From: Bacteroidota bacterium
GTDB lineage: Bacteria; Bacteroidota; Bacteroidia; UKL13-3
DNA: 64,000 nucleotides
NCBI GenBank assembly: GCA_046314755.1
Contig: JBKDBG010000017.1
Location: 7,626-71,625 of the forward strand
Direction of reading: 5' to 3'
Below are positions 3,368-27,116 of this stretch, piece by piece. Under the pieces are notes generated by a model. The model saw nothing but the letters and a program-made list of their open reading frames with translations, had not been told where the DNA came from and did no database searches. Position 1 is the stretch's first letter, and each line of letters starts with the position of its first letter. Position numbers and translations under genes: made by a program.

Positions 3368-6300
3368 TTAGTTACCAAGTGACCTGGCTAACTTAATTGG
3401 GTTCAAATTATTTAGCCTTAAGGTAAAAGTTATTCTTTGCAAATAACTGTTATGAAAAACATCCCAATTATTGGTTGTAAGTTGATCGGCAAATAGCGGA
3501 AAGTTCACTTGAAAAACATCATCAATCGCCCAAATGCTTAAACCTGTTACATAATAAATGGTTGCTTCATAAATTGTAACACTTGTTCCTGTATTGGCAT
3601 TGGTTTGGGTTGTTTTGCTGTTAACCGCAGCAGCATCAACAAATACACGTATAGGTAATATACCCGGAATTGATGAGGTAAAGTTAGCCGTTAACAACCA
3701 ACTATCAGTTGCGGCCAAGCTTTGCGCATAAGCCCTAAAACCTGAAGTACCCGGCATAATTTGCTGGGTAAATAAGTTGCTTACATTTCCCCTTCCAAAT
3801 TGCGATTCATCATACAAATAATCGTAATAACCATTGTTTTCTGCCAAACGGAACAACACACGCTCATCCTTACCCGACTCCGGTTTGGTTAAAAACGTTC
3901 CCCCGAATACACGAACATTTAACCCTTTGTTTCTTTCACCATAATCAATAGCAGTATTATATTCTGCCCATATCTTTTGAAAAGAACTTTGCGCTTGTCC
4001 GTATTGATAATGAACACTCCAACTTGTGGGATTTAACTTTCGCTTTTGGGTTGAAGTAAAACGAATATCGGTATAGGCAAATGCTTTATCAAAATCACTC
4101 AACAAGGCGCGTGTAAACCTGTTTTCTTGCACCAATACATAACGAATATCCAATTGGTTTTTAGCATCGGTACGTGGTTGTTTTTGATTGAAAATAAAGG
4201 TTATGCGTGGTGCAACTTTCTCATAAGATTTCAAACGATTATCTAAGTCAATGCCACTTCCTGTATATACTCCGTTGCTGTCAAAAAAGTCTTTTGCAAT
4301 ATCACCTTGTAAAGCAAAACGCGCACCCTCTATACCTACTTGTATCTCTCTAAAATAGGCTTGAGGAAAAAAGCGATGCTGTAAGCTAAACGATCCGGTT
4401 AAATCTTTTGTGCCAAAAGCAAACATTGGTGCGACCCAAAATTCAGTATTTTTTCGAGGAAGCATACTGTTATAGAACGCAACACCCAACATGGTTTTGT
4501 TGTACATGTTTGCCCCAATAATAGGGCTGTAGAATATTTGGGTTTTATTCGGCTTTTCGAGATTAACAACAGGAGAAAACTCAAGCGGCATAAGCGTTTT
4601 AAACAATCCCTTAGTTCGTGCATAGTTGTTTCCTCGGTAAACATCCAACGATTGTTCAAGGGCATCTATTCGAATATTCGAGATGTTTTTACCGTAAAAA
4701 CTTATAGATTGTTCTTTTTTAAATCCTGCCAATTTTTGCTCTGCAACCAAAGAGGAATCCGCAAATGCTTGTACATAAACCGGAGCCAAAACACCGCCCT
4801 TATTTTTTAATTTTACATGAACACTATCTCCGCTTTTTTGAACCTTACAAATGGCTACGTCAGGTATTTTTGACGAACCCATCAAATCATCAAAAAACCA
4901 ACTTAAATCTTCTCCGGTAAATGTTTTTGCATGATCCATAAAATCTCCGGGAAGCGGATGTTTAAATTTCCATCTTTCGTAATAGCTTTTCATCATCGCA
5001 TCAAATCTTTCGGTGCCTAAATGTTGTTGCAATTGTAAAAATGCCAATGAAGCCTTACTATAAATGATGGTACCATAGTTTAATGAAGTAAATGCTTCCG
5101 AATTTAACAATGAAGGTTGATCGGTTCGATTACGTGCACTTACCAAGTATTGCAACTGTAACAAACCGAATGATGATTCCGTTAACTGTTCAATAGAAAA
5201 TGATTTTGTTTTTTTGAGATTTGCTAGGCCCGGATGCTTGGTAAATAAAGGCTTGTAGGTGCTTCTTGCTTCATAATAGGTGTTGATACTTTCATCCATC
5301 CATGGATAACTACGCTCGTTGCTGCCTAAAATACCATAAAACCAATTGTGTCCAAGTTCATGTACAATTACTTGCCTTGACACTTCTGTAATATTGGTGA
5401 TAGTTGGGTATTCCATACCTCCACCAGCTTTTAAAGGAGTAACCACAACTGTAGCATGCGCATAAGGATAATTGCCTACATTTTTACTGTAAAATTGAAC
5501 AGCAGAATCTACCCAATGCACAACAGATTCTTTCGGACAAACTTGATAGACCCATGTCATCACTTTATGCCCATTATCCAATTGCACCTCATGGCGTTCT
5601 ATTTGAAATCTTTTATCGGCAAACCAGGCGAAATCATGCACACTGTCTTGCACAAAATGTAAAGTTTTTGTGTTGGAAGAAGAGGCAGGAAATTGAGTGT
5701 TGCAACTAGGGACATTTTCAAAATTTTTGTTGCTCAATTCAAACAGTTTATTCCATTCATCCTCGTTTTGCAGGTTACCTGTTGCTGCCACTAAATAATT
5801 TTCAGGTAATGTAATATTCACCTCAAATCGGCCAAACTCGCTGTAAAACTCACCTTGGTCCAAATAAGGCATAGGGTTCCATCCATTCACATCATAAACA
5901 GCAGGCTTTGGGTACCATTGGGTAATGCAATATTGTTGACCATTGTGGCCCAGTCGTGAAAACACTTCCGGAATTTTAACCCTAAAACTGGTAGTAATCA
6001 TTATTTGTTCACCGGGGTTTAGTGGTTTGTTTAATGTAAGTTTTATGATTTCATAACCATTCACAAAGGCGGTTTTTACTTTTTCGCCATTTATCTTGAA
6101 GTTTAAAGAATCAATTCGACCTCTTTGATCATCCTTAGCATAATAAAAATCCATGTTGCCGTTTTCTACTTGTTGTTTCGCAAATGGGGTTTCATTGTTT
6201 AAGTAGGCGTTAGGCCAAAGGTGAAAGAAAATTTCTTTAAGTGTATCCGGTGAATTGTTATAATAACGTAAGTCTTCAAAACCATGCAATACATGTTTGA

Positions 6301-6424
6301 TATCATCCAACCGAACATCTATAGTGTAATCAACCCTTTGTTGCCAAGGGGCTTGACGAATGAGTTGAGCCTGAGCAGCGATAAAACCTACACAAAACAA
6401 TAAAACACCAAGTATTTTTCTCAT
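3368..6424 (-). CDS. M1-family zinc metallopeptidase (aminopeptidase N-like) with a signal peptide and a long C-terminal extension
   Basis: A 1018-aa ORF. The N-terminal signal peptide is MRKILGVLLFCVGFIAAQAQ. The gluzincin motif is VHELGHNWFYGILGSNERSYPWMDESINTYYE (HEXXH followed by a downstream E). The roughly 450-aa C-terminal region has no recognisable family. Confidence 0.85.
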   Translation of the reverse strand: MRKILGVLLFCVGFIAAQAQLIRQAPWQQRVDYTIDVRLDDIKHVLHGFEDLRYYNNSPDTLKEIFFHLWPNAYLNNETPFAKQQVENGNMDFYYAKDDQRGRIDSLNFKINGEKVKTAFVNGYEIIKLTLNKPLNPGEQIMITTSFRVKIPEVFSRLGHNGQQYCITQWYPKPAVYDVNGWNPMPYLDQGEFYSEFGRFEVNITLPENYLVAATGNLQNEDEWNKLFELSNKNFENVPSCNTQFPASSSNTKTLHFVQDSVHDFAWFADKRFQIERHEVQLDNGHKVMTWVYQVCPKESVVHWVDSAVQFYSKNVGNYPYAHATVVVTPLKAGGGMEYPTITNITEVSRQVIVHELGHNWFYGILGSNERSYPWMDESINTYYEARSTYKPLFTKHPGLANLKKTKSFSIEQLTESSFGLLQLQYLVSARNRTDQPSLLNSEAFTSLNYGTIIYSKASLAFLQLQQHLGTERFDAMMKSYYERWKFKHPLPGDFMDHAKTFTGEDLSWFFDDLMGSSKIPDVAICKVQKSGDSVHVKLKNKGGVLAPVYVQAFADSSLVAEQKLAGFKKEQSISFYGKNISNIRIDALEQSLDVYRGNNYARTKGLFKTLMPLEFSPVVNLEKPNKTQIFYSPIIGANMYNKTMLGVAFYNSMLPRKNTEFWVAPMFAFGTKDLTGSFSLQHRFFPQAYFREIQVGIEGARFALQGDIAKDFFDSNGVYTGSGIDLDNRLKSYEKVAPRITFIFNQKQPRTDAKNQLDIRYVLVQENRFTRALLSDFDKAFAYTDIRFTSTQKRKLNPTSWSVHYQYGQAQSSFQKIWAEYNTAIDYGERNKGLNVRVFGGTFLTKPESGKDERVLFRLAENNGYYDYLYDESQFGRGNVSNLFTQQIMPGTSGFRAYAQSLAATDSWLLTANFTSSIPGILPIRVFVDAAAVNSKTTQTNANTGTSVTIYEATIYYVTGLSIWAIDDVFQVNFPLFADQLTTNNWDVFHNSYLQRITFTLRLNNLNPIKLARSLGN

Positions 6425-6521: not shown

Positions 6522-9500
6522 TTACCTTCTGTTTTTAAGTTGCTCAGCCTCTTGCAGCGTAACCCTGCGTCCGTTGTAGTAAGCACTAATAAAGGCATCA
6601 TTAAAGCCGAGCGAGCTTAATAAACGTAAGGTAGCGATACAATCGGCTTCGTTATTAAACTGACCACTTAAAACCCGCACAAAATCATTGTCAATAATTT
6701 CGTACATAATATCCGGTATTCCTCTAAACGCCTCTGGGTTTAGCGGTTTTCTAAATGCGCCTAGCTGAACGGTATACACCAATTCGCGAACATTGTTTAC
6801 GTCAATTTTATCTTTTAAGAAATTATCAAGGGCCTTATCGGTAATCACCGGCCTTGCCCTTCTTACAATAATTGGTTCATCTGGAATTACAACAGGTGGT
6901 GTATTAGTATTGGGTTGAAGGTTGCTCTGAGTGGCCGATTTATTGAGAGATGAAGCCGTATCTATAATTGCCCCGGATGAAGAGAACCTTTTAACACTCA
7001 CTTTTCTCCTCTTTTCAACAATGTTAAATGTCACAAAAATGCTTTCTACATCTTTATCTATTTTTACCTGAATATTGTTTTGCAATAAGGTATATCGATT
7101 ACCCAAAACCTTTTCATCAAAAATAATTTTGTAATCACCATAAGGAGCATAAAAAACAAATGACCCATCGTTCTCTGTAAGCGTATGAATTTCTTTTCCG
7201 TTCTGCGCAGTAATTTTTATCCCACCCAATTCGGGCAGAAACGAAATTTTCTCCGAAAGCACATCTTTATCAACGTGCACCTTGCCATAAATTTTCACCC
7301 CCTTTACAAAAGGCACTGCTACATATTCCTTGTCTAAATAATTTTTAGCCACCAAAATGGTATCCGCAACATTCGGAAAATACCCATTTAACTCTTCCAA
7401 ACTAAACGCTCCAAATTCGTACAAACCACCCGGCATATTTATCAATTTTGCTCTTCCTTTCTCATTGGTAAGCACGTCCCATCCGTTTACTCTTATCACA
7501 ATATTTTCAAGCAAATACTCATCATTATCTTTTACATGATTTCCATTCACATCAACAAAGGCAATAAAATTAGCGGTATAATATCTGCTATTTGAAAACG
7601 GATTTTTTATGCCAAATACTTTTCGAATACCAACATTTGCCATAACATTTTGTGAACTTGTTACGCCTGATTCCTCAGAAACGCCAGTAAGGCCCGACTG
7701 ATTAAAAAACACTACGTTGTTGTTGTTCTTCGTAAAATAGTATCCGAGTTGTAACCTAAAGCGCCAATTATTATCAGTGTAATAATTTAACTCCGGCATA
7801 TAGCTAAACGTTTGGCGCTCATTTTGGCTATAATAAGTGTAGCCTACAAACTGTTGCAAGATAAAATGTGTGTTTCTAAATTGGTATTGGTGATTTAGTG
7901 CGGCAGAAAAAATTTGTGGAGTAACAATAACCGGAGTATTGCCAAGACTAACTGTTCCAATATTGCCATATGCATATCTAATATTAGCCGAGTAAGTTCT
8001 ATATCTGGCCATGCTAAAAAACTGTACAAAGAAATAATCTCTTTGCGGAGTAAGAAACAGCGGACGGTTATATCCTGCCAGCAATGATGCTGAAACCAGC
8101 TGGTTCTTTTCGTAATCAAAACTACCCACATTAAAACTAACCCCTCTGGAATGAACCTCTTTTAAATTCACACTTGAGATGTTATAAAATCCGCCCGTAG
8201 AGAAGAAGGCTTGGCCAACATTTTTATTTACCGATACCTGATTATTGACATTTAAATAGCGATTGGTTGGAAGAAACACATTTCCTGTAAAGATATCGCT
8301 GCGTTGATTGTAGTTATGAATAAGCGTAATGGTTGTTTTCTCATTGTATTTGAAATAAATATTGGCATTTCCTATGTAGGTTTCTCCATCGTTTTGAAAA
8401 GATGATTTAGGAGAGAAATAAGAAAAGGAAAGATTAGATGTTAAGTTGTTTTTTCTTAAAAAAGTACCGGAGTGATTTACTCGAGCCAAATAGCCGGAGT
8501 TAGATGGCCCTGCAGAAGGGATATGATTTGCAATAATGATTCCAAATGAAATACTTTGCGTAGAGCCAAACCCTTGACTCATACTTAATCCATAGTAATC
8601 AGTTATAAAATTCGCACTCAACTGATTTGATCTGGTAAATCCGGAACTGATTTGTGTTCGTTTTAATCGAATGTTGTGAGATACACCATAGCCTTCTGAA
8701 GAATATCCTAATACGTTAGGGCCACCAAAAAGTAGTAATGGATTTTTGGTATAAAAACCACCAATACTTTGTGTTTTTGATATTCGATACATGCCACCTA
8801 TACCTCTTCCGGGAACGGCAAAAGTAGCATTGCTTTCGGGCGCACCACCAATATCTCCTGTAATAATGGAGTACTTTTTATCATACAATCCAACAAAAAA
8901 GCTCGAGTACCTTAAGTAATTATCTGTGTAATAATTCGTGCTGAAATTGGTTTGGAATTGATACATTAAATTAGCACCGTTATCCAACATGGTATTGCCT
9001 CTTAATAACACATTCACAAGAGGAGATCCGGTTGCCAAACTGTTAATATTTGCGTCTAAAATAAGTGGAAAATAAGCATAACCGAATGGTGTTATTTTTA
9101 CTTCGTTCCCCAACCGAACAAAGTCAACCTTTTTGCTTTTTTGTAAAGCACGGCTTCCAAGAGCCTTCGACTCACTTGTTTTTATATAAATAGAGTAGGT
9201 TTTAGTTTCGTCTTCAGTTATTGGGCGATGTGATTCTGTATCAATAAAACGCAAATTTCTTACACCTTCTACCGTACTAACCATATAATGAAACATCGTA
9301 TCGCCTCCAACGCCTAAATTAATATCTTTAAATGTGTTGGAAACAATTTTTCCTGAAGTATCGGTTACAGAAAGTTGTGCCCTATAATTTTCTACAGAAA
9401 CGGAAAGCGGCTGTTCTTCATTTCCTAAGTTGAACACGCCAAAGCTTAAGTCTGTGGTGGTTTGTTTGTTTTTGAAATATATTTTTCCGGGATTGAGCAA

Positions 9501-9983
9501 GTTAATATCCCAATTCCCTATTCGTTTACGATAGGCGAAGAAACTGGATGTTCCAATTACATTACCCGATTCCTCACTTACGTATATGGTGATTAGATAT
9601 TTAGTGTTTCCTTTGATTTTTCCTTGGGGAATTATGTTAACCGGAAGGTATAATTCTTCTTGTGGGCCAATGGTATAAGTTCTTTCAGAAAAGGCGGTTC
9701 TTTTCCACTCGGGAGGAGCTGAAACAGATATTTTAATTCTTCGTTCAGTCCCTTCTAGGTTTAATAATATGATGGTTTTAGAAATGGGTTCTCCAGGTAT
9801 AATTTGTTCCGTGGTATCATCCATAAAAAAAGCTACCAATGTGGTGCTTGACTGTTTAAATAATTTATTATTGATAAGGGTATCACTTGTTTGAGCGCTT
9901 ACCGTATGGTAAACAAACAAACAACTGCACCAAATGATGAGTTGTAAAAGAAGATTGCGATATGAGGTTAGGGGGTGGGTCAA
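6522..9983 (-). CDS. Large outer-membrane protein with usher-like architecture: signal peptide, an N-terminal beta-sandwich region, a roughly 650-aa Y/F/G-rich beta-barrel-like core, two carboxypeptidase-regulatory-like Ig domains, an S/T/N/P linker and a C-terminal SPOR domain
   Basis: A 1153-aa ORF with signal peptide ...FVYHTVSAQ. The middle region is dominated by alternating aromatic/small-residue beta-strand patterns (for example FSYFSPKSSFQNDGETYIGNANIYFKYNE). IKITAQNGKEIHTLTENDGSFVFYAPYGDYKIIF fits the CarboxypepD_reg-like pattern. The C-terminus VYTVQLGAFRKPLNPEAFRGIPDIMYEIIDNDFVRVLSGQFNNEADCIATLRLL fits a SPOR repeat. The usher assignment is an inference from domain order and not from recognised sequence identity. 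Confidence 0.65.
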   Translation of the reverse strand: MTHPLTSYRNLLLQLIIWCSCLFVYHTVSAQTSDTLINNKLFKQSSTTLVAFFMDDTTEQIIPGEPISKTIILLNLEGTERRIKISVSAPPEWKRTAFSERTYTIGPQEELYLPVNIIPQGKIKGNTKYLITIYVSEESGNVIGTSSFFAYRKRIGNWDINLLNPGKIYFKNKQTTTDLSFGVFNLGNEEQPLSVSVENYRAQLSVTDTSGKIVSNTFKDINLGVGGDTMFHYMVSTVEGVRNLRFIDTESHRPITEDETKTYSIYIKTSESKALGSRALQKSKKVDFVRLGNEVKITPFGYAYFPLILDANINSLATGSPLVNVLLRGNTMLDNGANLMYQFQTNFSTNYYTDNYLRYSSFFVGLYDKKYSIITGDIGGAPESNATFAVPGRGIGGMYRISKTQSIGGFYTKNPLLLFGGPNVLGYSSEGYGVSHNIRLKRTQISSGFTRSNQLSANFITDYYGLSMSQGFGSTQSISFGIIIANHIPSAGPSNSGYLARVNHSGTFLRKNNLTSNLSFSYFSPKSSFQNDGETYIGNANIYFKYNEKTTITLIHNYNQRSDIFTGNVFLPTNRYLNVNNQVSVNKNVGQAFFSTGGFYNISSVNLKEVHSRGVSFNVGSFDYEKNQLVSASLLAGYNRPLFLTPQRDYFFVQFFSMARYRTYSANIRYAYGNIGTVSLGNTPVIVTPQIFSAALNHQYQFRNTHFILQQFVGYTYYSQNERQTFSYMPELNYYTDNNWRFRLQLGYYFTKNNNNVVFFNQSGLTGVSEESGVTSSQNVMANVGIRKVFGIKNPFSNSRYYTANFIAFVDVNGNHVKDNDEYLLENIVIRVNGWDVLTNEKGRAKLINMPGGLYEFGAFSLEELNGYFPNVADTILVAKNYLDKEYVAVPFVKGVKIYGKVHVDKDVLSEKISFLPELGGIKITAQNGKEIHTLTENDGSFVFYAPYGDYKIIFDEKVLGNRYTLLQNNIQVKIDKDVESIFVTFNIVEKRRKVSVKRFSSSGAIIDTASSLNKSATQSNLQPNTNTPPVVIPDEPIIVRRARPVITDKALDNFLKDKIDVNNVRELVYTVQLGAFRKPLNPEAFRGIPDIMYEIIDNDFVRVLSGQFNNEADCIATLRLLSSLGFNDAFISAYYNGRRVTLQEAEQLKNRR

Positions 9984-9986
9984 ATA

Positions 9987-10631
9987 TTACAATCCTTCTC
10001 GAAGACAAAATTTCACATTAAGCAAGTAAACTCCCGGCTGTAAGTTTAAAGTAGGACGAATGCGGTAATCAACAGTAAAACTATACTCGCCATAATTAGT
10101 TATGTGCGAACCCGGTCTATTCACATTCGTTCCCGTACAAGTTCCACCGGCATTACTAACTCCGGGGCTATTTACGATGGGAATGTTTGTTGCAGTTGAT
10201 GGTAATGAAACGTAATTTGTACCTGTTAGTGAGGTATTACATGTATTGCGAAAACGCATTTCCAATAAACTCACTTGTGGCATTGGTGATGAAGTAGTGC
10301 CATACATCATAATGTTTTCCCACTCTGTTGCAGGAGATGCATTATTATCTAAATGTACACTTAAAAACCAACGGCAATCAGAAGGAGGAGCTGCATTTTC
10401 AGCAACAATAATTTTATACACCGATTGGCCGAATAGATTTACGCCTCGCAAATAATCGCCAAAAGAATAAAAAGTGAAGTTTATTACAGGCTCCCCTGTA
10501 AGTTCAATTTGAGATCCGGCACCGATACCACTGCAATTAGCTGTAGTAATGGGGGTACAAGAGGTTTGTGCTTTTATGCATAATGTGCTACTTAGTAAAC
10601 ACAATATGCCAATGAATATCTTGCCGTTCAT
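9987..10631 (-). CDS. Small secreted T/S/N/G-rich protein, a candidate fibre subunit and paralog of the next gene
   Basis: A 214-aa ORF with signal peptide MNGKIFIGILCLLSSTLCIKAQ. The C-terminal motif EYSFTVDYRIRPTLNLQPGVYLLNVKF is shared with the 290-aa neighbour (SDYRYVIDYRILPNLP...PGVYTMYVKY). It lies 3 bp upstream of the 1153-aa gene. Confidence 0.6.
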   Translation of the reverse strand: MNGKIFIGILCLLSSTLCIKAQTSCTPITTANCSGIGAGSQIELTGEPVINFTFYSFGDYLRGVNLFGQSVYKIIVAENAAPPSDCRWFLSVHLDNNASPATEWENIMMYGTTSSPMPQVSLLEMRFRNTCNTSLTGTNYVSLPSTATNIPIVNSPGVSNAGGTCTGTNVNRPGSHITNYGEYSFTVDYRIRPTLNLQPGVYLLNVKFCLREGL

Positions 10632-10685
10632 AAGTAAATTTTAAAAGCGGGCACTTAATGTGCCCGCTTTAATTTTGCTTTTTGA

Positions 10686-11558
10686 CTATTGGTCTTGAGC
10701 TAAAATATATTTTACATACATGGTGTATACACCAGGCTGAGCGTAAGTTGCGCCATCACCGGTTAATGTAGTTGCACCATCAGCAGCAATCATATATGGA
10801 GCTGTTGCATTGGTAGCGTTAACAGGGTTTGGAGCTACACGCATGTGGGCAGGAAAAGTTACCGGTAAGTTTGGTAAAATACGGTAATCAATTACATAAC
10901 GATAGTCTGACGTGTTTGCGTTAGAGTTTAGGATGTAACTACCACCTGCAATACTACATCCGGCACCTGTTCCTGTTCCACCTGCAATATACTTCTCAGA
11001 AGTACCTGCAGCGTTGGTTGAGGTAGGTGAAGTGTAAGGAGTAGTTGGGTTCGGGCAGTAAATATTGTTGTTACCCGGAGTCATGGTAGAGGTAGCTGCG
11101 GTTGTGATTGGTTGGAATACCGTAGAATAATCACTAGAAGCGGCAACTGTAGTTAAACAAGTTCCGATTGATGGATTACCGGGGAACTGTCTTAATTCAA
11201 GTGCAGTTAGTGGAATATCATCAGTTGCTCCGGTTGCTGAAGCGTACTCAACCGGATTATCCCATAAGAAGTTACCTTCTTGTCCTTGTGATAAACCTGC
11301 TGCCCATAAGTCGAAACTTACAGTAGCACTTACCTTAAGTATTGTAGCACCATACTTTACAATACCGGCATAGTACTCGTTAATTTCGTCAAATGTAAAG
11401 TCAAGTTGATCCGGACCTTCCATTTTTAATTGAAGAATAGGCTGTAAATCCATTGTAATGGTTACATTCTTCTCATCTTGCAACTGAGCAAAAGCTCCGT
11501 TAGTAAGCACCACAGCTCCCAGAGCCATGAATACTTTTCTGAGTTTAGTTGTTTTCAT
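10686..11558 (-). CDS. Small secreted T/S/N/G-rich protein, a candidate fibre subunit and paralog of the 214-aa protein
   Basis: A 290-aa ORF with signal peptide MKTTKLRKVFMALGAVVLTNGAFAQ. After the signal peptide there is an alternating hydrophobic stretch, VTITMDLQPILQLKM. The C-terminal DYRILP...PGVY motif is shared with the 214-aa protein. Confidence 0.6.
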   Translation of the reverse strand: MKTTKLRKVFMALGAVVLTNGAFAQLQDEKNVTITMDLQPILQLKMEGPDQLDFTFDEINEYYAGIVKYGATILKVSATVSFDLWAAGLSQGQEGNFLWDNPVEYASATGATDDIPLTALELRQFPGNPSIGTCLTTVAASSDYSTVFQPITTAATSTMTPGNNNIYCPNPTTPYTSPTSTNAAGTSEKYIAGGTGTGAGCSIAGGSYILNSNANTSDYRYVIDYRILPNLPVTFPAHMRVAPNPVNATNATAPYMIAADGATTLTGDGATYAQPGVYTMYVKYILAQDQ

Positions 11559-11578: not shown

Positions 11579-12484
11579 TTATTTTTTGGGTTTTTGTTGT
11601 TTAGTTAAATTGCCAATTTCAAATTCAAGTTCTGCCGCTTCCAAAGTTTCGTCACTTCCAAAATCAAGAATTACTGAGGCTATATATTTTCCGGGGGGCA
11701 ATTCACCGGGTAAGGTAAAATCAAAGTTTCTTTCCTTTTTAGGGAATATGGTAAATTGCTTTGATGACAGTTTTGTTTTATATCCATTGTTAATATTCGT
11801 AAGTTCAATAAACATACGTGAAAAGCCTAAACCATCACCGGTATTAAAGGCCGTTGCATAAATTACACCTTTACTGTTTTGTGTGGTATCAGCAGAACCA
11901 ACAAATTTCAACTTGGTAAGTTCTAACTTATTTACTTTTACGTTTGGCGGATTTTGGAACATGTACACAGCAAAACCAAATGTTGGAATAATACCCATGG
12001 CAATGGCTTTTCCATCGGCATTTTTGGGTGCAATGGCTTGTCGCTCCTTCATCTGATCAATCATTAGCATGGTCCAGCCGGCTCGGTAACAATTTGCCGA
12101 ATCAGGCACAGCCAGGGTAATGGCAATCTTTTTGGCTTCACCCGGCTTCAACTCAACAAATGATGGTGAAATAGAAATCCACTTAGAAATGCCGTACTCG
12201 TGTTGCACATTGGCAGGCAGTTGTGTCACGGCCCCCCTATCACTCATGTCATAATCAGTTACACTAATCTTAAACTTTTCAGGATTTTTAGTATCATTAG
12301 TAATGGTTACATATTTTGTATCTGAATAACCCGGTATGGTAGTAAATTTTACCATAGAAGGCGCTACAGCCACGCCTAAATTGGTTATTGAATCTTTCAA
12401 TAATGGTTGTTGTGACTGCTGCGCAAACGCAATTAAAAATGAAAAAACGCTTACTGTTAATACAAGGAGTTTCCTAATGAACAT
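11579..12484 (-). CDS. Periplasmic two-beta-sandwich-domain protein, a candidate PapD-like pilus chaperone
   Basis: A 301-aa ORF with signal peptide ...FLIAFAQQ. The first domain, GVAVAPSMVKFTTIPGYSDTKYVTITNDTKNPEKFKISV...PSFVELKPGEAKKIAITLAVPD, follows the PapD/MSP-like strand pattern (vfPp..p.eq.ltv.N....p..f...v...P.f..L.Pge...i.i). The second domain, FTIFPKKERNFDFTLPGELPPGKYIASVILDF, is also beta-rich. It is the first gene of the four-gene operon, with a 20-bp gap to the next gene. The chaperone call is an inference. Confidence 0.45.
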   Translation of the reverse strand: MFIRKLLVLTVSVFSFLIAFAQQSQQPLLKDSITNLGVAVAPSMVKFTTIPGYSDTKYVTITNDTKNPEKFKISVTDYDMSDRGAVTQLPANVQHEYGISKWISISPSFVELKPGEAKKIAITLAVPDSANCYRAGWTMLMIDQMKERQAIAPKNADGKAIAMGIIPTFGFAVYMFQNPPNVKVNKLELTKLKFVGSADTTQNSKGVIYATAFNTGDGLGFSRMFIELTNINNGYKTKLSSKQFTIFPKKERNFDFTLPGELPPGKYIASVILDFGSDETLEAAELEFEIGNLTKQQKPKK

Positions 12485-19622: not shown

Positions 19623-22600
19623 TTATTTATGCAATACAATTTTGGTTAAAACCATTTCACCATTAACCATTGATTGTAACACATACATGCCCTGTTCGAA
19701 ATCGTTCATGTTCAATTTAATTTCACCGGCATCAACCCACGAATTTGAATGCCATTTTTTCAATAACTTTCCTTGTAAATCAAACAAACAGATTTCATCA
19801 ACCTTTGCCTCTTTACTGGTTTCAATCAACAAATAATCTTGTGCGGGATTAGGATAAATACGTACAGGTAATGAAAGTGTTTTTTGAACAACGCGTACAC
19901 CCAGATAAGCGTATTCCCCATTCATGTCTTCTTGGATGAGTCGATAATAAATAAGTTGGTGTTGAAGCGTTGCACCTACATCATCATACGAATATTGTTT
20001 TGCTGCGTAACTGTTTCCGTTGGCTTTAATAAACGTAAGTGGAGTAAAGTTAATTCCATCCAAAGACTTTTCAATTAGAAAACCTTTGTTGTTTATTTCT
20101 TGGGCAGTTGCCCAACGAATTACTGCATCATCCTCTCGCAACTTCACGTCAAATGAAATTAGTTTTACCGGTAAAGGATTACTGATGGCCTCATCACAGC
20201 CCATATATGGTTTAATCAATGGGCGAGTATGATTATCGATATCCGTTTGAATATTTGCAAGCCGAATTCCTGCTAAAAGGGTATCACCTAAAGAAGCTCC
20301 TGCTAACCTTAAACGCCAAGCACTTTGAAAGGTTACAACCTTACTTTGCGATTGAAAGTTTGTTGCGGTTGCAGTTGAAAATGCAGATAAGGTGGCATAA
20401 TCAATTGCATTAGCATTTCCTAAAATGGTATTGGTTCCATTCACATATAAAAGGTTATGATTCATCACAGGATTGCCGCCCAACCAAAAAAACACAGCAT
20501 AATGTTTACCTCCGGATGCACTTGTGTTACTGCGTTCGTTGATAAAAATATTATTGAACACCGAGTCTTGTGCATCTCCTATTCCTGAATAAAAAGCTGT
20601 TGAGTTATTTGATCCCGATGAGCTTACATTCTGTCCTGATATTCTTACCGTATTGTAAAATATTTTATTGGCAGCTCCGGATTTTTGTATGCCAATGTAT
20701 GCAATTGATCCTGTGTTCGCATTTGAAAGACTATCTGTTCCTAATGCGATTTCATTGTTGTGTACAAATATACCGGGACCAAAAGTTGAAACGCCAATTG
20801 CTCTTGCTTCGGTGTTGTTGATTGGCCCGATGCCTAGAATGCTGTTTCTTGCCACTTCAATAAAATTAGTACTGCCTCCCGAAACTTGAATACCCGCAGC
20901 ATTTCCCGAAGGCGCCCCAATGGTATTTATTTGTGTTACAGTATTGTTAGTCACCAAACGTTGGCCACTTCCTGAGGCAGATAGAAAAATACCGTTTATA
21001 AAAGTAAAACTTGTGCTGATTAAAGCAGGGTTTGACGGGTTATGACTCAATTGTGTGATGCGGTTATTTCGGATTATTGCAGGGGCATTTCCTGAAACAA
21101 ATATTCCATACAATGTTTTAGATTGATGTAAAGCATACCGTAAGTTTCTAATGGTATTATTTTCAATGGTTACATGTTGCCCATTGTTCACCGTAAACTC
21201 AATGCCACATAAATCACCGTTACATAGTTGGTTAATACTAGCCGCAGTTTGATTTGAACCAATAATATTATTAGTAACACTAAATACACCTGAGCTGGCC
21301 GAAAACCTTATACCATAAAAAGAAAGCAAGCCACCTCCGGAAACCTGTATCGCTCCGATTTTATTTTGATTGATGAGAATGGAGTCAAGCGCTGTACCTA
21401 GAGATGCACCAATATTAATTCCGCTAAATGCTGCAACACCAACATTGTTTACATAATTAAATTGAATACTTGCTACTCCGGTATCAGCACCTATTGTGTT
21501 TCCGGTTAATTCTGCCTTGCCGTTTAAAACAGCAATAAAAGCATGGTTGCCGTTGTTGAACATGGTAGAAAAACTTATACGCCTAAACGTATTATTACGA
21601 ACGGCCACACCGGCATTTGCTGTACTTAACTGAAGAAGTTGGTATGTAACCGTACCATCAAACGAAGTGTTTTGCGTACCACCACAATAGGCCGCACTGC
21701 CTCCAAAAAAGTTATTCGAGATATTAGCAAAGCCTGCAGAAGCATAGCTGATAAACGAAAAGTTGCTCGAATGGCTGTATGTGAGGTTTTTGTAAAAACT
21801 GTTTCCGGTAATGGCTAGATTGGCGTTGGTATTATCCACAAAAATTCCGCAGTTCAGTGGGCTCACAATTTCATTATTGGTAATCATATTTCCGGTTGAA
21901 AGCACGTTGGCCGGCCCCGTTGAACCTGATGCGGAAATACACGTTGCAGGTAAATTTGATGTATTGAGAGCACCAATGTAACAACTGTCGATTATGTTAT
22001 TGTTATTTCCTGTGCTTATTCTGTTGCCAAACTCTACAATTCCGTCATTATTAAATGTTGTGTTCCCATAAACAAAACAATTTTGTAATCGGTTAAATGA
22101 AGCGTCATTTGCAAACAACACCGCAGGGTCACTTGATGTATTTCTGATGGTGATTCTTCTGCCTGCCTGTGTAGTCGTATCCGCGCCATTAACAGAAATA
22201 TACCTTGAACCGTTAAAATAAATATTGGCTGGAGTTGCAGAGCCAATGACGGTTGCTGTAACACCATTTGCAGGACGAATTTGTATGTTGTTGACAGCAC
22301 TTACTCCTTGTATTAGTGATGAAAATGCTATAGGAAATGTTTCGGCAGGAGTGGTGTAAGTTGTTTGTGTTAATAACAACGTAACCGGACCGGAAACCCC
22401 TCTTTGGTTTACATCATTTACTGCTGCCGTTAACGTAGTATAATTTCCTCCTGCACCTACTCGATAAACACCCGACATTGGAGGGCCAACAATGGCAAAA
22501 CGAAACGGAGTGCTTGGAGGTGCCGTAAAACTATCCCAAGTGATGCTGCCAAAACCGGCAGAAGGAAGTGCCGCATAATTCCCCAAACTATCAGTTGCTG

Positions 22601-25600
22601 CAAAGAAGTAATAAATAGAATCTCCTATCACGGGCAATGAAGTAAGCAAAGCATAATTCAACGTAAATTCAAAAGGAGAAGCAGCACTGCTTGTCTCCAC
22701 AAATTTCCAACCGTTAAAACTGCTTTGGTTTGGACCAAAACCATTGCCTTCTGATTTTTTCTTAAAATAAACCCGGGGCTTTCTTCCGTTGGCCATGCTT
22801 ATACCGCTTAAGGTATCACTAATGATTAATGCAGGTAGCGTACGAAGCGGAGTTGAACCACTATTAACAGCATTTTGATACGCACCAAATTGTGGAGGGA
22901 AAATATCGTAATCGGTTTCATAACAACCAAGTCTAGTGAATGGTGTTGTGCGTATCGAATCAATCAAATCTCTATTGATACCCGATAATACTACTCCCAC
23001 TTTTGTGGTTGCGCCTTTAATGGGCCTCAAATCACTGTTGCTAATTAATCGCGGATTTGTTGAAACAGAATTGGCATTTCCTCCTAACCTACCTACTAAA
23101 CCAGCTAAATCATTATAATTTGATGAGCCATCATACAACAAAAATCCGTTAGCCGGATCAACATAATAGTTGTTATTGTTAATGGTTGCTCCTACAATTG
23201 GCAATGTGGTTGATGCCCAAAATGCAGTATGCCTTGAGCTGCCTAAGCCATTAAACCTAATGTTGCTGAAAACATTATTACGAATATCAAGCCCGGTAAA
23301 CGGACCATTGCCAAAAATTTGAAAAGCACTTGAACCACTAACGCCCGAGCCAAAAAATGACCCACCTGAAAAGTGCACTGTATTGTAATATATTTTTAGG
23401 TTGGTTCCTCCATTAATTTTTATTCCAAACGAGTTAAACATGATTCCTATGGAGCTGCTACTGTTTGATGCCAATATTCTTGAAATGCTGTTGTTATAAA
23501 TGGAATCATTATTGACCCCAACTCCCGTTGAAACAAAAACACCATAACACCCTGTTGAATTGGCGTTACCAGACTCCACAGAATGGATGATATTATTTTT
23601 AATGCAAGAGTTATTTACGTTTTCACCCAAATGCACCCCAGTTAAAATAACGCCAGTACCGGAATAGATATTAATGATTTGATTTTTATTTATCACCGCA
23701 TTGTTTGCACCTTCCAAATAAACACCTGTTGTGCCAAGCACTAAATTAGAAGAGTCGCTGCTGAATCGGTTGTTTTCAATAAGCAAATTGGTAATAGGAG
23801 AACTTACCGAACCTAAAGCCATTATACCTGCAACACCAACATATAAATTACAATTGCGAACCGTAATTCTATCTGCACCTTCAGCCTTTGTTATGGCTTG
23901 GGCTCCAATACCTGTTCTTCCGCCTATAATAACAATTTGCGTGGTTGAAACATTGGATCCTTTCAAAATCACATTTCTAATTTCAACATTTTTTATGCCT
24001 CCGTTTTGGTTGGTTGATTGCATAAATAACACACTTTGTGCATTTACATGAGTGTTGGTTATTCTTAAGTTGCGTGAGGTTGTGTTGTTGTTCGAACCTT
24101 CAAGGGTAAAGTTATTTACACCATCACGTACAATAAATAAAGCAGAATCAAACGACCCTATGATTAATGGGTTTAATCCTGCGGCTGGCCTCATTAATAA
24201 TGTATTGTTGGCCGACATACCAACAGCCGGACGAAGCGAAAGCGGAAAAGTTTCTTGTCCGCCAAGCGCAGGTGTGGTATACATATTATTGGTTAACACA
24301 AACGTTACCGGACCGGTTTGTACACTTGCTGCATAACGATTAAAAGCCGCTGTAATTGAACTAAAGGATCCTCCATTGCCCACTGTAAATACCCCGGAAA
24401 GGGTATCAAAAACAGGGAAAAACGGAATACTTCCGCTAACCGGAAAATTAGAGGAGAGCAAGGTGGTTGAATTTACTACTCCATTAATATTTACCGCACC
24501 CGAACCAATTGTGCCGTTACTGTCCTCAACAGCTGCAAAAAACTCAATGGTATCTCCTACCGCAATTCCACCTTGTAATAAAGCAAAATCAACCTGAAAC
24601 AAAAAAGGAGAGGCGGCACTTGATGTTTGCACAAACTTCCATCCACTGCTTTGGTTGGTATTATTTACAAATGCATTTGGAGCTGTTTTTTTCTTGTAAT
24701 ACAACCTTGGGCGGTTAGTTACCGATCCTTTTATGCCAAATCTATCACTGGCAATAACCGTAATTTGAGGGGCAGTTTGAAATGGCGAAACACCACTTAC
24801 TTGCCCATAACTTACTTGTGGTTTTTGAAAATCAGCAGGAACAAAAGCGCCTTCATAACAACCCAAATCAGGGTAACGAAGTGAGCGAAGATTTCCGTTT
24901 AAATCATTCAACACCATCATTGGGGTATCAATATAATTTGCTCCGGATTCAATTTGTGAAGGTACACCTGTTGCCGGTTGTAAATCAAAAGGAGTAACAA
25001 CTGTTTGTTGAAACTGCACATCTTCAAAGTAACTTTCGCTTTCTCTCGGGGCTACTCTTTGTCTTATTTGTGCTAAAGTAGTATCACGGTTTGCTCCGTC
25101 ATAATACGCTGCAAACCTACCCGGTGAACCGGATGAGAAAAACAAATTCTGATTTGAACCAAGTCGGTACGTATCCAAGTTTGAGCTTTCTCTGTAATAA
25201 GCTGCATTCATTCCAAATGGTACAGCCAGAGATTTATTCACCAATACATTATTGCGCAACTCAACTTGCGAAAAGACACTTGCCCTTACACAATACGAAA
25301 GTAAATTTCCGGAGTTTGGCGCATTAAAATAAATGGTGTTGTAATAAATTCGACTGACATTGGTTGGGCCGTGCGTATTGATAAAAATACCAAATATACT
25401 GCTTTCAATACTGCTGGTGTAGGTTTCAAAATCATAAATAAGGTTATTGGTAATAACCGCGTTGATGTGATTTGGACCTATTTCAATTCCGGTTAAAGTA
25501 GCATTGATGGAGTCGGAACTAAAACCATAGATTTGATTGCGTAAAATATTTACTTGTGCATTGGTGTTATTGTATTCAATGGCTTTTACTACGCCTAGCT

Positions 25601-27116
25601 TGGTTCTGAAGTTATAAAACCTATTGCCTTGAATCACCTTAACACCGGAAAAAACATAGCCTGTAACCGGTTTTAAATACCCAATTACGCTTCCATTAAC
25701 CGTATTGATTAATCCATAAAATTCATTGCTAACTACACTATCGGCAAGGCTTGAGTTGTGGTTATTCATAATGCCAACATTCGCGCCATTCACACAAGTA
25801 TCATTATAAATCTTGTTCTCATAAATGCGGGTAATTCCAAGGGAGCCTAAAATATTTATTCCATAAAAACTGGTAGTACTTCTATTGCCGTAGATTTCGT
25901 TTTTTTGCATGAGCACATATCTGTTATTCGCCAACGTAATAAATAATCCTGCAAACAGTTGTGATGCTGTACCCCAATAAGAATTATTATTAATATGATT
26001 TAGATTAATGATTAAGGTATCGCATGCAATGGCATTAATCCCATTAAAAGTACCGGTTGCGGTTCGGCAATTCCGAATAAAATTACTTTCCACATACAAC
26101 CGGCCCGTATTGCTGTTATTAATTAACAAGCCGTTGTTTGTGCCGGATGAAACGGTGTCGGTAATTATGTTATTTTTTATAAAGGCGCGAGCAATGAATT
26201 TTAAATCAATTCCGTTGAGCGTGTTTGTAAAACTTAATCCGCCTCCTGAAATGGTATTACCGTCAACCTCTAAGTTGTTTTGATAATACATGGCAATACC
26301 CGAAGCAACGGAACCGTTATTTGGCCCAAAACCAACTATATTATTTCCTTGATTGGGAGACCCAATTTTATTCGACTGATCATATAGCGTAGTTGATGCA
26401 GACGTTATATTTATTCCGCTAAAATATACTCCAAATTGTGCATTGGTTATGGTGTTGTTTTCTATGGTATTAAAGGAGTGTGCATCATTCACCGATGTGT
26501 AGGTGATATTTGACGTATTGATTGCAGTATGATTTGCAGCATAAATGGCCGCTTGTGTCATAAACGTATTCCGCCTAAACCTTATGTTACAATTGCGAAT
26601 GGTATTGTATTGGCAACCATCAACGGGAGCTGCAGCATTACGTTTCACCAACATGATGCCGTATTCATATTGTGTAAAGGAAAAAGTATTGGTATTAGCC
26701 TCTATGAAATCCAGCCCGTCAAAAGTTACATAATCAACGCCCAAAAGCTTAACCATAGCATCTATTCCGCCAATGCCCGAACCGGAAGTAAACACAGGGT
26801 TGTTTCCCGGCAAAAAACTTTTACGAATAACCAAAGGATTATTGGCGTTTAGCGTTCCGTTTAATGTGGCCGAGCCAAGACTTATACCTGCATTGGGCAA
26901 GGTTTCGGTATGTCCGGAAGCAATTTCAATAATTGCACCACCGGCTGCAACTCCATTTGTATTTAGTGCAGTAAAAGCAGCATTGAGAGATACATAATCA
27001 CAACCTGAAGTACAAACTGTTTTGGTTCCTGAGATAGGTTGACTAAAAACCGGAAAAACGAAGAATATAAAAAGCACCGCAATGAATGATTTGCTTTGAT
27101 GCAGATTTAAATACAT
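19623..27116 (-). CDS. Giant secreted T9SS cargo protein with multiple right-handed parallel beta-helix (pectin-lyase-fold) regions and a Por/T9SS C-terminal sorting domain; a putative adhesin
   Basis: A 2497-aa ORF with signal peptide MYLNLHQSKSFIAVLFIFFVFPVFSQ. It has pervasive N/S/T/G-rich short repeats (IxNNxI, NNN). There are several beta-helix N-cap-like motifs of the pattern G(V/T)(F/Y)xVGxGGx(F/Y)xx(I/L)TAA, for example GVFTVGNGGSFSSITAAF and GVYRVGAGGNYTTLTAAV. The C-terminus IYPNPAQDYLLIE...GMYVLQSMVNGEMVLTKIVLHK fits the T9SS CTD (TIGR04183-like). Confidence 0.85.
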   Translation of the reverse strand: MYLNLHQSKSFIAVLFIFFVFPVFSQPISGTKTVCTSGCDYVSLNAAFTALNTNGVAAGGAIIEIASGHTETLPNAGISLGSATLNGTLNANNPLVIRKSFLPGNNPVFTSGSGIGGIDAMVKLLGVDYVTFDGLDFIEANTNTFSFTQYEYGIMLVKRNAAAPVDGCQYNTIRNCNIRFRRNTFMTQAAIYAANHTAINTSNITYTSVNDAHSFNTIENNTITNAQFGVYFSGINITSASTTLYDQSNKIGSPNQGNNIVGFGPNNGSVASGIAMYYQNNLEVDGNTISGGGLSFTNTLNGIDLKFIARAFIKNNIITDTVSSGTNNGLLINNSNTGRLYVESNFIRNCRTATGTFNGINAIACDTLIINLNHINNNSYWGTASQLFAGLFITLANNRYVLMQKNEIYGNRSTTSFYGINILGSLGITRIYENKIYNDTCVNGANVGIMNNHNSSLADSVVSNEFYGLINTVNGSVIGYLKPVTGYVFSGVKVIQGNRFYNFRTKLGVVKAIEYNNTNAQVNILRNQIYGFSSDSINATLTGIEIGPNHINAVITNNLIYDFETYTSSIESSIFGIFINTHGPTNVSRIYYNTIYFNAPNSGNLLSYCVRASVFSQVELRNNVLVNKSLAVPFGMNAAYYRESSNLDTYRLGSNQNLFFSSGSPGRFAAYYDGANRDTTLAQIRQRVAPRESESYFEDVQFQQTVVTPFDLQPATGVPSQIESGANYIDTPMMVLNDLNGNLRSLRYPDLGCYEGAFVPADFQKPQVSYGQVSGVSPFQTAPQITVIASDRFGIKGSVTNRPRLYYKKKTAPNAFVNNTNQSSGWKFVQTSSAASPFLFQVDFALLQGGIAVGDTIEFFAAVEDSNGTIGSGAVNINGVVNSTTLLSSNFPVSGSIPFFPVFDTLSGVFTVGNGGSFSSITAAFNRYAASVQTGPVTFVLTNNMYTTPALGGQETFPLSLRPAVGMSANNTLLMRPAAGLNPLIIGSFDSALFIVRDGVNNFTLEGSNNNTTSRNLRITNTHVNAQSVLFMQSTNQNGGIKNVEIRNVILKGSNVSTTQIVIIGGRTGIGAQAITKAEGADRITVRNCNLYVGVAGIMALGSVSSPITNLLIENNRFSSDSSNLVLGTTGVYLEGANNAVINKNQIINIYSGTGVILTGVHLGENVNNSCIKNNIIHSVESGNANSTGCYGVFVSTGVGVNNDSIYNNSISRILASNSSSSIGIMFNSFGIKINGGTNLKIYYNTVHFSGGSFFGSGVSGSSAFQIFGNGPFTGLDIRNNVFSNIRFNGLGSSRHTAFWASTTLPIVGATINNNNYYVDPANGFLLYDGSSNYNDLAGLVGRLGGNANSVSTNPRLISNSDLRPIKGATTKVGVVLSGINRDLIDSIRTTPFTRLGCYETDYDIFPPQFGAYQNAVNSGSTPLRTLPALIISDTLSGISMANGRKPRVYFKKKSEGNGFGPNQSSFNGWKFVETSSAASPFEFTLNYALLTSLPVIGDSIYYFFAATDSLGNYAALPSAGFGSITWDSFTAPPSTPFRFAIVGPPMSGVYRVGAGGNYTTLTAAVNDVNQRGVSGPVTLLLTQTTYTTPAETFPIAFSSLIQGVSAVNNIQIRPANGVTATVIGSATPANIYFNGSRYISVNGADTTTQAGRRITIRNTSSDPAVLFANDASFNRLQNCFVYGNTTFNNDGIVEFGNRISTGNNNNIIDSCYIGALNTSNLPATCISASGSTGPANVLSTGNMITNNEIVSPLNCGIFVDNTNANLAITGNSFYKNLTYSHSSNFSFISYASAGFANISNNFFGGSAAYCGGTQNTSFDGTVTYQLLQLSTANAGVAVRNNTFRRISFSTMFNNGNHAFIAVLNGKAELTGNTIGADTGVASIQFNYVNNVGVAAFSGINIGASLGTALDSILINQNKIGAIQVSGGGLLSFYGIRFSASSGVFSVTNNIIGSNQTAASINQLCNGDLCGIEFTVNNGQHVTIENNTIRNLRYALHQSKTLYGIFVSGNAPAIIRNNRITQLSHNPSNPALISTSFTFINGIFLSASGSGQRLVTNNTVTQINTIGAPSGNAAGIQVSGGSTNFIEVARNSILGIGPINNTEARAIGVSTFGPGIFVHNNEIALGTDSLSNANTGSIAYIGIQKSGAANKIFYNTVRISGQNVSSSGSNNSTAFYSGIGDAQDSVFNNIFINERSNTSASGGKHYAVFFWLGGNPVMNHNLLYVNGTNTILGNANAIDYATLSAFSTATATNFQSQSKVVTFQSAWRLRLAGASLGDTLLAGIRLANIQTDIDNHTRPLIKPYMGCDEAISNPLPVKLISFDVKLREDDAVIRWATAQEINNKGFLIEKSLDGINFTPLTFIKANGNSYAAKQYSYDDVGATLQHQLIYYRLIQEDMNGEYAYLGVRVVQKTLSLPVRIYPNPAQDYLLIETSKEAKVDEICLFDLQGKLLKKWHSNSWVDAGEIKLNMNDFEQGMYVLQSMVNGEMVLTKIVLHK

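Follow-up and report, generated by a model that had tools for sequence, protein, structure and literature searches.

The window analysed here is a stretch of 64,000 nucleotides (nt) from a Bacteroidota bacterium (lineage UKL13-3; GenBank assembly GCA_046314755.1, contig JBKDBG010000017.1, positions 7,626 to 71,625 of the forward strand). Four closely packed open reading frames (ORFs) on the minus strand span positions 12484-6522 of the window. The two inner ones encode small proteins of 290 and 214 amino acids (aa), which a first-pass annotation made from the letters alone had described as paralogous secreted proteins of no recognisable family and as candidate major and minor or tip subunits of a polymer, flanked by a chaperone-like and an usher-like gene. 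The cluster is considered here as the probable source of a tubular pilus of the TLP-1 type. Its genes and features are listed below in window coordinates, with the evidence for each in brackets (Ig, immunoglobulin; AF2, AlphaFold2).

11579..12484, minus strand: 301-aa chaperone-like protein with two Ig-like domains, residues 38-177 and 187-290 (AF2 model, Foldseek, Pfam, synteny)
10686..11558, minus strand: 290-aa major pilin of the TLP-1 family (phmmer against PDB entries 9IKK and 9IKJ)
9987..10631, minus strand: 214-aa strandless pilin paralogue, probable tip or cap (minor) subunit (hhalign, invariant cysteines, natural fusions)
6522..9983, minus strand: 1153-aa usher-like outer-membrane protein (AF2 model, Foldseek, synteny)
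11421..11465, minus strand: pilin donor strand beta-1, V32-M46, VTITMDLQPILQLKM (family conservation and alignment to the TLP-1 strand)
11957..12004, minus strand: candidate complementing strand I161-F176 of the chaperone-like protein, AIAMGIIPTFGFAVYMF, followed by the invariant QNPP linker (model and register)
10644..10670, no strand assigned: perfect 11-bp hairpin in the spacer between the pilin gene and the 214-aa gene, likely attenuator or terminator (hairpin scan)
7605..9074, minus strand: predicted transmembrane beta-barrel region of the usher-like protein, residues 304-793 (DSSP on the model)
6531..6782, minus strand: C-terminal SPOR-like domain of the usher-like protein, residues 1068-1151 (sub-threshold Pfam match and model)

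Both small ORFs were found at the positions and with the properties ascribed to them by the first-pass annotation. Each protein opens with a hydrophobic signal sequence and then a predicted cleavage site (arrow): AFA↓Q25 for the 290-aa and KA↓Q22 for the 214-aa protein. The same A↓Q ends the predicted signal peptides of all four proteins of the cluster (AFA↓QQ, AFA↓QL, KA↓QT and SA↓QT), and the glutamine is invariant or nearly so in each family. Signal-peptidase-I substrates of Bacteroidota tend to carry glutamine, later pyroglutamate, at position +1, and the A↓Q pattern fits this tendency. The mature parts are rich in T, S, N, G and A (45% in the 290-aa and 43% in the 214-aa protein; 34% and 36% in the two flanking proteins), and the two share the C-terminal block ..DYRI.P...PGVY..VK..L. 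The pair was aligned by BLASTP with 23% identity (E 2e-7). A profile-profile comparison (hhalign) related the two subunit families with 99.1% probability (E 9.7e-19, 192 columns). At these scores the similarity of the two sequences is well beyond chance, and the proteins are paralogues as had been proposed.

When the 290-aa protein was searched against the PDB with phmmer, it matched entries 9IKK (E 2.4e-33) and 9IKJ (E 3.5e-32), residues 27-287 being aligned onto chain residues 3-235. The two entries, with 16 chains in each, are TLP-1b and TLP-1a, respectively, fibrils described in a 2024 CryoSeek cryo-electron microscopy study of filtered pond water (PMC11494351). Pfam and NCBIfam contained no family for either subunit (28 pilin and 43 214-aa relatives scanned singly, alignments scanned to E 10). 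The statement that the proteins have no recognisable family thus stands for these two collections and falls for solved structures. The first-pass annotation had named a confident match to an unrelated family, such as a lipocalin or a lectin, as an outcome that would speak against polymerising subunits, and no such match was found. That both proteins are non-polymerising secreted proteins of this kind is scarcely credible: the sole hint is a weak, sub-threshold Wzt_C match of the 214-aa protein (E 0.0027), which recurred in just one of the 43 members of its family, and the only solved relatives are the subunits of filaments.

TLP-1 fibrils are tubes 8 nm wide with a 15-Å lumen, whose protomer was modelled from the density without sequence information (PMC11494351). 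In the tube the N-terminal strand beta-1 of one protomer slots between beta-2 and beta-7 of another and completes its Ig-like domain, protomer n+4 donating to protomer n (PMC11494351). The authors of that study found no matching sequence in their own metagenome or mass-spectrometry data and stated that species, identity and function were unknown; their text is silent on gene context, minor subunit, chaperone and usher (PMC11494351). In the searchable literature, subscription-only papers lying outside that search, no description of genes or machinery for TLP-1-type fibrils was found.

The correspondence between the 290-aa protein and the TLP-1 chains extends over the full length. Q25, the residue after the predicted signal-peptidase site, pairs with residue 1 of the deposited chains, so that the cleaved signal peptide and the mature N-terminus agree, and the donor strand NVT(I/V)TMDLQP(I/V)LQL and the C-terminal strand PGVYT..VK are common to both. 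The 290-aa protein differs in being about 30 residues longer; judging by the alignment gaps, the additional length lies in the variable segments at the middle and near the C-terminus. The N-terminal stretch VTITMDLQPILQLKM had been singled out by the first-pass annotation as a possible donor strand. In the TLP-1 structure the matching strand, NVTVTMDLQPVLQL, is the one inserted into another protomer, and it aligns to NVTITMDLQPILQL of the 290-aa protein. This stretch is the best-conserved block of the family, with V32, D37, Q39, P40, L42, Q43 and L44 invariant across 28 diverse homologues. The search yielded 704 homologues of the 290-aa protein, none of them annotated. BLASTP identity to TLP-1, whose deposited sequences are approximate, having been derived from the density map, was 31% for the 290-aa protein, 40-44% for the shorter pilins of other genomes and 50-54% for metagenomic pilins, which fall in the shorter-pilin subgroup. 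A search of metagenome contigs for the exact source of TLP-1a/b gave 54% identity at best. Judged by its sequence, the 290-aa protein is a homologue of the TLP-1 protomer with a conserved donor strand, and the earlier proposal of a polymerising subunit is borne out to that extent.

To survey the distribution of the cluster, one genome per species was scanned for relatives of the pilin. A relative was present in 195 species genomes, and 80 loci were taken for the study of gene order. All 80 carry Bacteroidota labels (Flavobacteriales, Chitinophagales/Sphingobacteriales and Bacteroidales) save three contigs, L026, L030 and L041, which come from metagenome-assembled genomes labelled Comamonas sp., Bifidobacteriaceae and Chlorobiota. 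These three labels probably reflect mis-binning and no true occurrence beyond Bacteroidota. Among the carriers are the cultured species Flavicella marina, Flavicella sediminum and Polaribacter uvawellassae.

The order chaperone-like gene, pilin gene, tip-like (or tandem) gene and usher-like gene was found in essentially all of the roughly 80 loci with enough flanking sequence, over a range of roughly 45-78% pilin identity and several orders of Bacteroidota. The metagenomic loci nearest to TLP-1 (50-54% identity) share it. An unrelated 199-aa ORF (L112:4871-5470) splits the pair of chaperone-like and pilin genes in one locus among those closest to TLP-1, the rest of the cluster being intact. 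Median spacers were 119 nt between the chaperone-like and pilin genes, 65 nt between the pilin and tip-like genes and 5 nt between the tip-like and usher-like genes. In the window the usher-like gene starts with TTG, 3 nt past the stop codon of the 214-aa ORF. A strong stem-loop (minimum free energy -8 or lower) follows the pilin gene, within the spacer, in 70 of 79 related loci, the sequences of the stem-loops being unrelated. It is likely to act as an attenuator or terminator that would hold the pilin transcript in excess of those of the downstream genes.

One more distant cluster, in a different order, was seen in Logan accession SRR25229942 (L086:3413-8983). Its genes encode, in this order, a pilin-like protein of 202 aa with a weak N-terminal hhalign match (69%), an usher-like protein of 933 aa whose C-terminal domains are 28% identical, a chaperone-like protein of 267 aa and an unassigned one of 387 aa; the cluster is located downstream of genes for a sigma-54 two-component regulator. 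This variant suggests a wider superfamily, consistent with the large number of chaperone-like representative clusters given below.

The 301-aa protein has a large family. An exhaustive search gave homologues in 963 representative clusters, and 117 of the sequences were aligned for AF2. The resulting model (predicted local distance difference test, pLDDT, 89.5; predicted template modelling score, pTM, 0.79) consists of two beta-sandwich domains, 38-177 and 187-290. Compared with the PDB by Foldseek, it matched Enterococcus WxLIP best (E 1.3e-12), followed by the chaperones CfaA, DraB, FimC, CsuC, PapD, CupB2, Caf1M, FaeE and SafB with E-values of 1e-11 to 1e-8. The chaperone matches extend over about 255-275 columns and both domains, with probability 1.00 and target-normalised template modelling (TM) scores of 0.5-0.62, and more than 40 chains of chaperone-usher chaperones were matched. 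The model thus supports a two-domain, Ig-like, PapD-like fold, and the neighbour called chaperone-like in the first-pass annotation deserves the name. By Pfam, WxLIP_PGBD (PF06030) matched 42 of 43 cluster-linked homologues (best E 1.3e-11), the window protein itself scoring 20.9 bits, under the cut-off of 27.3.

The segment I161-F176 of the chaperone-like protein, AIAMGIIPTFGFAVYMF, comprises the last strand of domain 1 with the loop preceding it, and the invariant QNPP comes next. Hydrophobic residues occupy positions -6, -4, -2, +2, +4 and +6 around P167, a proline kept in 42 of 43 sequences, and this register equals that of the pilin donor strand around P40. The match, taken from the sequences, is suggestive of complementation of the subunit by I161-F176. 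Domain 1 has no invariant arginine or lysine; the sole invariant basic residue, R252, is in domain 2. The only helix of the model is the signal peptide, and the chain stops 11 residues past domain 2, with no C-terminal transmembrane helix.

For the 1153-aa protein the AF2 model was of moderate confidence (pLDDT 66.8, pTM 0.42; most barrel blocks pLDDT 75-90), since the alignment contained only 16 sequences. It places two Ig-like domains at the N-terminus (49-296), followed by about 26 consecutive long strands (304-793, by DSSP) and beta-sandwich domains (801-1000); past residue 1000 there is a disordered linker and then a C-terminal alpha/beta domain. The seven top Foldseek matches in the PDB were all FimD (E 3e-13 to 3e-12, about 800 columns) or PapC (8.5e-9), with TM scores of 0.3-0.45. 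TonB-dependent transporters and LptD trailed at about 1e-5 to 1e-6, the lead of the top usher matches over other large barrels being about 10^6 to 10^7-fold in E-value. The term usher-like, already used by the first-pass annotation, is therefore supported by the model as a statement on fold and architecture.

At the C-terminus of the usher-like protein, Pfam SPOR gave a sub-threshold match (E 0.0055; 17.4 bits, where 21 is the cut-off) that covers positions 5-73 of the 76-position profile, and the domain is modelled as beta-alpha-beta-beta-alpha-beta. By its sequence this SPOR-like domain probably binds peptidoglycan. It is 47% identical in one related locus (L001) and missing from most homologues, which have about 970-1030 aa. 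The C-terminal extension of the family varies: SPOR-like in the window and in L001, it is replaced in L003 by a segment matching Pfam EAD9 (with weak matches to the APG6_N coiled-coil and FapA), and the usher-like protein of Polaribacter (L073) has 1507 aa.

A different kind of surface complex, built around a WxLIP-like protein, was also considered. In the WxL/WxLIP (DUF916-DUF3324) clusters of Firmicutes, WxLIP consists of two Ig-like domains, the first of which is predicted to push a strand into its WxL partner (PDB 9I1Y/9I25; PMC10599100). By analogy, the 301-aa protein could be a permanent anchor or bridge and the 1153-aa protein an outer-membrane anchor that translocates nothing. The Foldseek and Pfam matches to WxLIP, the two Ig-like domains, the strand predicted to enter a partner and the SPOR-like domain would all suit such a complex. 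However, the 301-aa protein lacks the C-terminal transmembrane helix, the WxL domain is found in neither subunit, the host is a diderm and the cluster includes a gene for an outer-membrane barrel. Moreover, the chaperone-usher chaperones match the 301-aa model over both domains nearly as well as WxLIP does, and the homologous TLP-1 fibrils are homopolymers that were free in filtered water. We regard a WxL-like anchoring complex as rather unlikely. Identity with a WxL cluster as such was rejected, because both subunit families lack a WxL match and the 301-aa protein lacks a membrane anchor.

The fold matches also bear on whether the subunits need the flanking genes at all. Strand-exchange fibres that form without a chaperone exist (PMC12518558), and in sequence neither flanking protein is homologous to a classical chaperone or usher. 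The subunits could then be exported and assemble by themselves, like TasA or archaeal cannulae, the flanking genes serving another purpose. This would leave unexplained the strict synteny of the four genes over roughly 45-78% pilin identity and several orders, as well as fold matches of the flanking proteins that are specific to chaperones and ushers, and in a diderm cell the subunits still need an exit through the outer membrane. Unaided assembly appears very improbable.

The 214-aa protein differs from the pilin in one respect that bears directly on assembly. In an alignment of 43 sequences of its family, the donor strand beta-1 is absent: both hhalign and BLASTP matched the pilin family only from LQLKMEGPDQ of the pilin onward, which is past the donor strand. 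The mature N-terminus of the family is Q-x-C, and C25, C86, C131 and C165 are invariant in the 43 sequences. The elements of the acceptor cleft of TLP-1 are kept, namely beta-2 (..N.DFTFD.F..Y..GIT) and the C-terminal ..IDYRI.PG....PG.YQL..KF.L.E. Taken alone, the 214-aa protein gave E 0.56 with TLP-1; the profile of its family gave E 1e-7, with 9IKK and 9IKJ as the sole matches in the PDB.

In at least eight related loci (L001, L003, L011, L013, L014, L016, L017 and L029) the position of the tip gene is occupied by a tandem protein of 441-461 aa. The one encoded by L001:9018-10397 has a first half like the 214-aa protein, then a copy of the donor strand, AQLQHQTFTFEIDIEPIIQLTM, and then a full pilin body, which is 36% identical to the window pilin (E 2e-35). 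The L001 junction reads AQLQ and resembles a fossil A↓Q signal-peptidase site. The proteins of L011, L013 and L014 have similar internal ..IEIQPILQL.M segments, and carry the cysteine set of the tip domain in the N-terminal half with at most one extra cysteine, located in the signal peptide. The layout of the fusions is therefore tip domain, short linker, donor strand, pilin body. Engineered self-complemented subunits, used in work on chaperone-usher pili, have an equivalent layout. Because the natural fusions mimic such subunits, they suggest, by analogy, that the tip-like domain contacts and accepts the donor strand of a pilin.

In chaperone-usher pili, which grow from the base, a subunit that has a cleft and lacks a donor strand is the first to be incorporated and ends up distal. 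On this analogy the 214-aa protein is probably the tip or cap (minor) subunit, because it keeps the cleft and has no donor strand. The earlier proposal of a minor or tip subunit is upheld as regards the shared fold without the strand; its placement at the tip is argued from the proteobacterial rule. It is conceivable that TLP-1-type fibres are made and that the 214-aa protein is instead a cell-proximal anchor or terminator, a nucleator bound to the usher-like protein, or a periplasmic regulator of assembly. The distal assignment leans on the rule of growth from the base, a four-chain architecture may call for a dedicated complex that initiates or caps it, and translation of the 214-aa gene is coupled to that of its usher-like neighbour (3 nt apart in the window, 5 nt in the median). 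Against such roles, a protein having an acceptor cleft and no donor strand cannot join an existing acceptor end, and in chaperone-usher systems this property marks the first, distal subunit. The fusions, too, place the tip domain N-terminal to the donor strand of the pilin, which is the arrangement of a distal neighbour. A proximal or regulatory role of the 214-aa protein therefore seems unlikely, if slightly less so than the WxL-like complex considered above.

Taken together, these results favour, with a probability that we put at roughly 0.7, the reading that the four-gene, operon-like cluster builds a TLP-1-type pilus by a divergent chaperone-usher-like pathway. The homologies, folds, gene order and conservation come from the present analysis and the strand-exchange polymer from the literature; the roles of chaperone, usher and tip are those that we infer. 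In this pathway signal peptidase I would cut the 290-aa major subunit at AFA↓Q25. The pilin body would then be an incomplete Ig-like sandwich, to be completed by V32-M46 of another subunit through donor-strand exchange. Before that, the 301-aa PapD/WxLIP-like protein, as a periplasmic chaperone, may temporarily insert its I161-F176 strand so as to fill the subunit cleft. The 1153-aa barrel with its flanking periplasmic domains would take subunits from the chaperone, export and polymerise them. The 214-aa protein would start each strand-exchanged chain and so end up distal, and the product would be an 8-nm tube with strand donation from n+4 to n, as in the solved relatives. The hairpin after the pilin gene may set the stoichiometry, with a large excess of pilin over the products of the minor and usher-like genes.

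Several observations weigh against the proposed pathway. The case for the window protein and its cluster rests on sequence and predicted structures, and the usher-like model has the moderate confidence noted above (pLDDT 66.8, pTM 0.42). The 31% identity of the 290-aa protein to TLP-1 is low, and this and the other identity figures inherit the approximations of sequences read from density. PapD_N and PapD_C of Pfam were not matched by the 301-aa protein of the window, PapD_N being matched weakly by 5 of 43 homologues (best 4.7e-4), and hhalign of the 301-aa family with E. coli FimC gave 0.8% probability. The nearest relative of the 301-aa protein by both structure and Pfam is WxLIP, a protein described in the literature as a partner for surface anchoring rather than a chaperone. 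Pfam Usher (PF00577) was unmatched in the 1153-aa protein and eight homologues, hhalign of this family with E. coli FimD gave 0.4% probability, and the secondary-structure string of the model has no plug-like insertion of about 80 residues between barrel strands. The profile of the usher-like family also gave no match among PDB sequences. What the models indicate is a resemblance of fold, and homology of the 301-aa and 1153-aa proteins to the classical chaperone-usher families is not claimed. Finally, the tube would consist of four separate chains, because the donor is n+4, and a single usher extruding one linear polymer does not explain this. Either several ushers cooperate or the larger usher-like protein works differently.

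The likeness to the chaperone-usher pili of Proteobacteria (Fim, Pap, CFA/I, Csu/CupE and Caf1) covers the N-terminal donor strand, the two-Ig chaperone fold, the large outer-membrane barrel flanked by beta-sandwich domains, the strandless minor subunit and the hairpin after the major gene. The cluster in the window differs from them in having no detectable sequence similarity, in its occurrence in Bacteroidota and in its gene order of chaperone, major subunit, minor subunit and usher. Proteobacterial ushers are smaller than the usher-like protein, whose model has a pair of Ig-like domains at the N-terminus and about 26 strands and shows no evident plug inside the barrel. In proteobacterial pili the donor is subunit n+1, whereas in TLP-1, the solved relative of the window pilin, it is n+4 and the tube has four chains.

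The type V pili (FimA/Mfa1) are also strand-exchange polymers and occur in the same phylum. Type V pilins are lipoproteins, which polymerise once proteolysis has removed a strand at the N-terminus, and the strand that they donate is C-terminal. Identity with a type V pilus was rejected: the predicted A↓Q cleavage sites of the window subunits have neither a +1 cysteine nor a lipobox, the donor strand lies at the N-terminus, and Pfam gave no match to a FimA or Mfa family.

Directly downstream of the cluster, at 3368-6424 (minus strand), the window encodes a secreted protein of 1018 aa with an M1-peptidase domain (Pfam E 4e-12), which is not kept beside the cluster in other loci. Elsewhere in the window there are three very large ORFs, 19623-27116 (minus, 2497 aa), 27372-37766 (minus, 3464 aa) and 58167-63935 (minus, 1922 aa), of which the first two start with signal-peptide-like sequences, and several further ORFs of 700-1300 aa. 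The very large ones probably encode giant surface proteins. No tRNA genes and no second cluster were found in the remainder of the window. A scan for sigma-70 promoters was uninformative, returning fewer sites than shuffled sequence did, with a model that does not represent Bacteroidota promoters.

By these results the 290-aa subunit is a further member of the structurally known TLP-1 family, and the system around it is best described as a divergent variant of the chaperone-usher type. For the orphan TLP-1 structures there is now a gene family with a phylum, as well as a conserved cluster of four genes that includes candidates for chaperone, tip and usher, and the cultured carriers open the TLP-1 question to genetics and electron microscopy. 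If the pathway works as proposed, assembly of the chaperone-usher type reaches Bacteroidota by way of proteins that sequence searches do not link to the known ones, and the Gram-positive WxLIP fold becomes tied to pilus chaperones. It also poses a mechanical problem, the building of a single tube from four strand-exchanged chains. We consider the odds to be slightly in favour of the joint claim that there is a Bacteroidota-wide chaperone-usher-like pathway, previously undescribed in the searchable literature and unrelated in sequence to the proteobacterial one, which uses a chaperone akin to WxLIP and is the source and assembly machine of the TLP-1 fibrils. If this is true, its machinery would have to co-assemble four chains per tube, capped by strandless, disulfide-bearing tips, which no known usher does.

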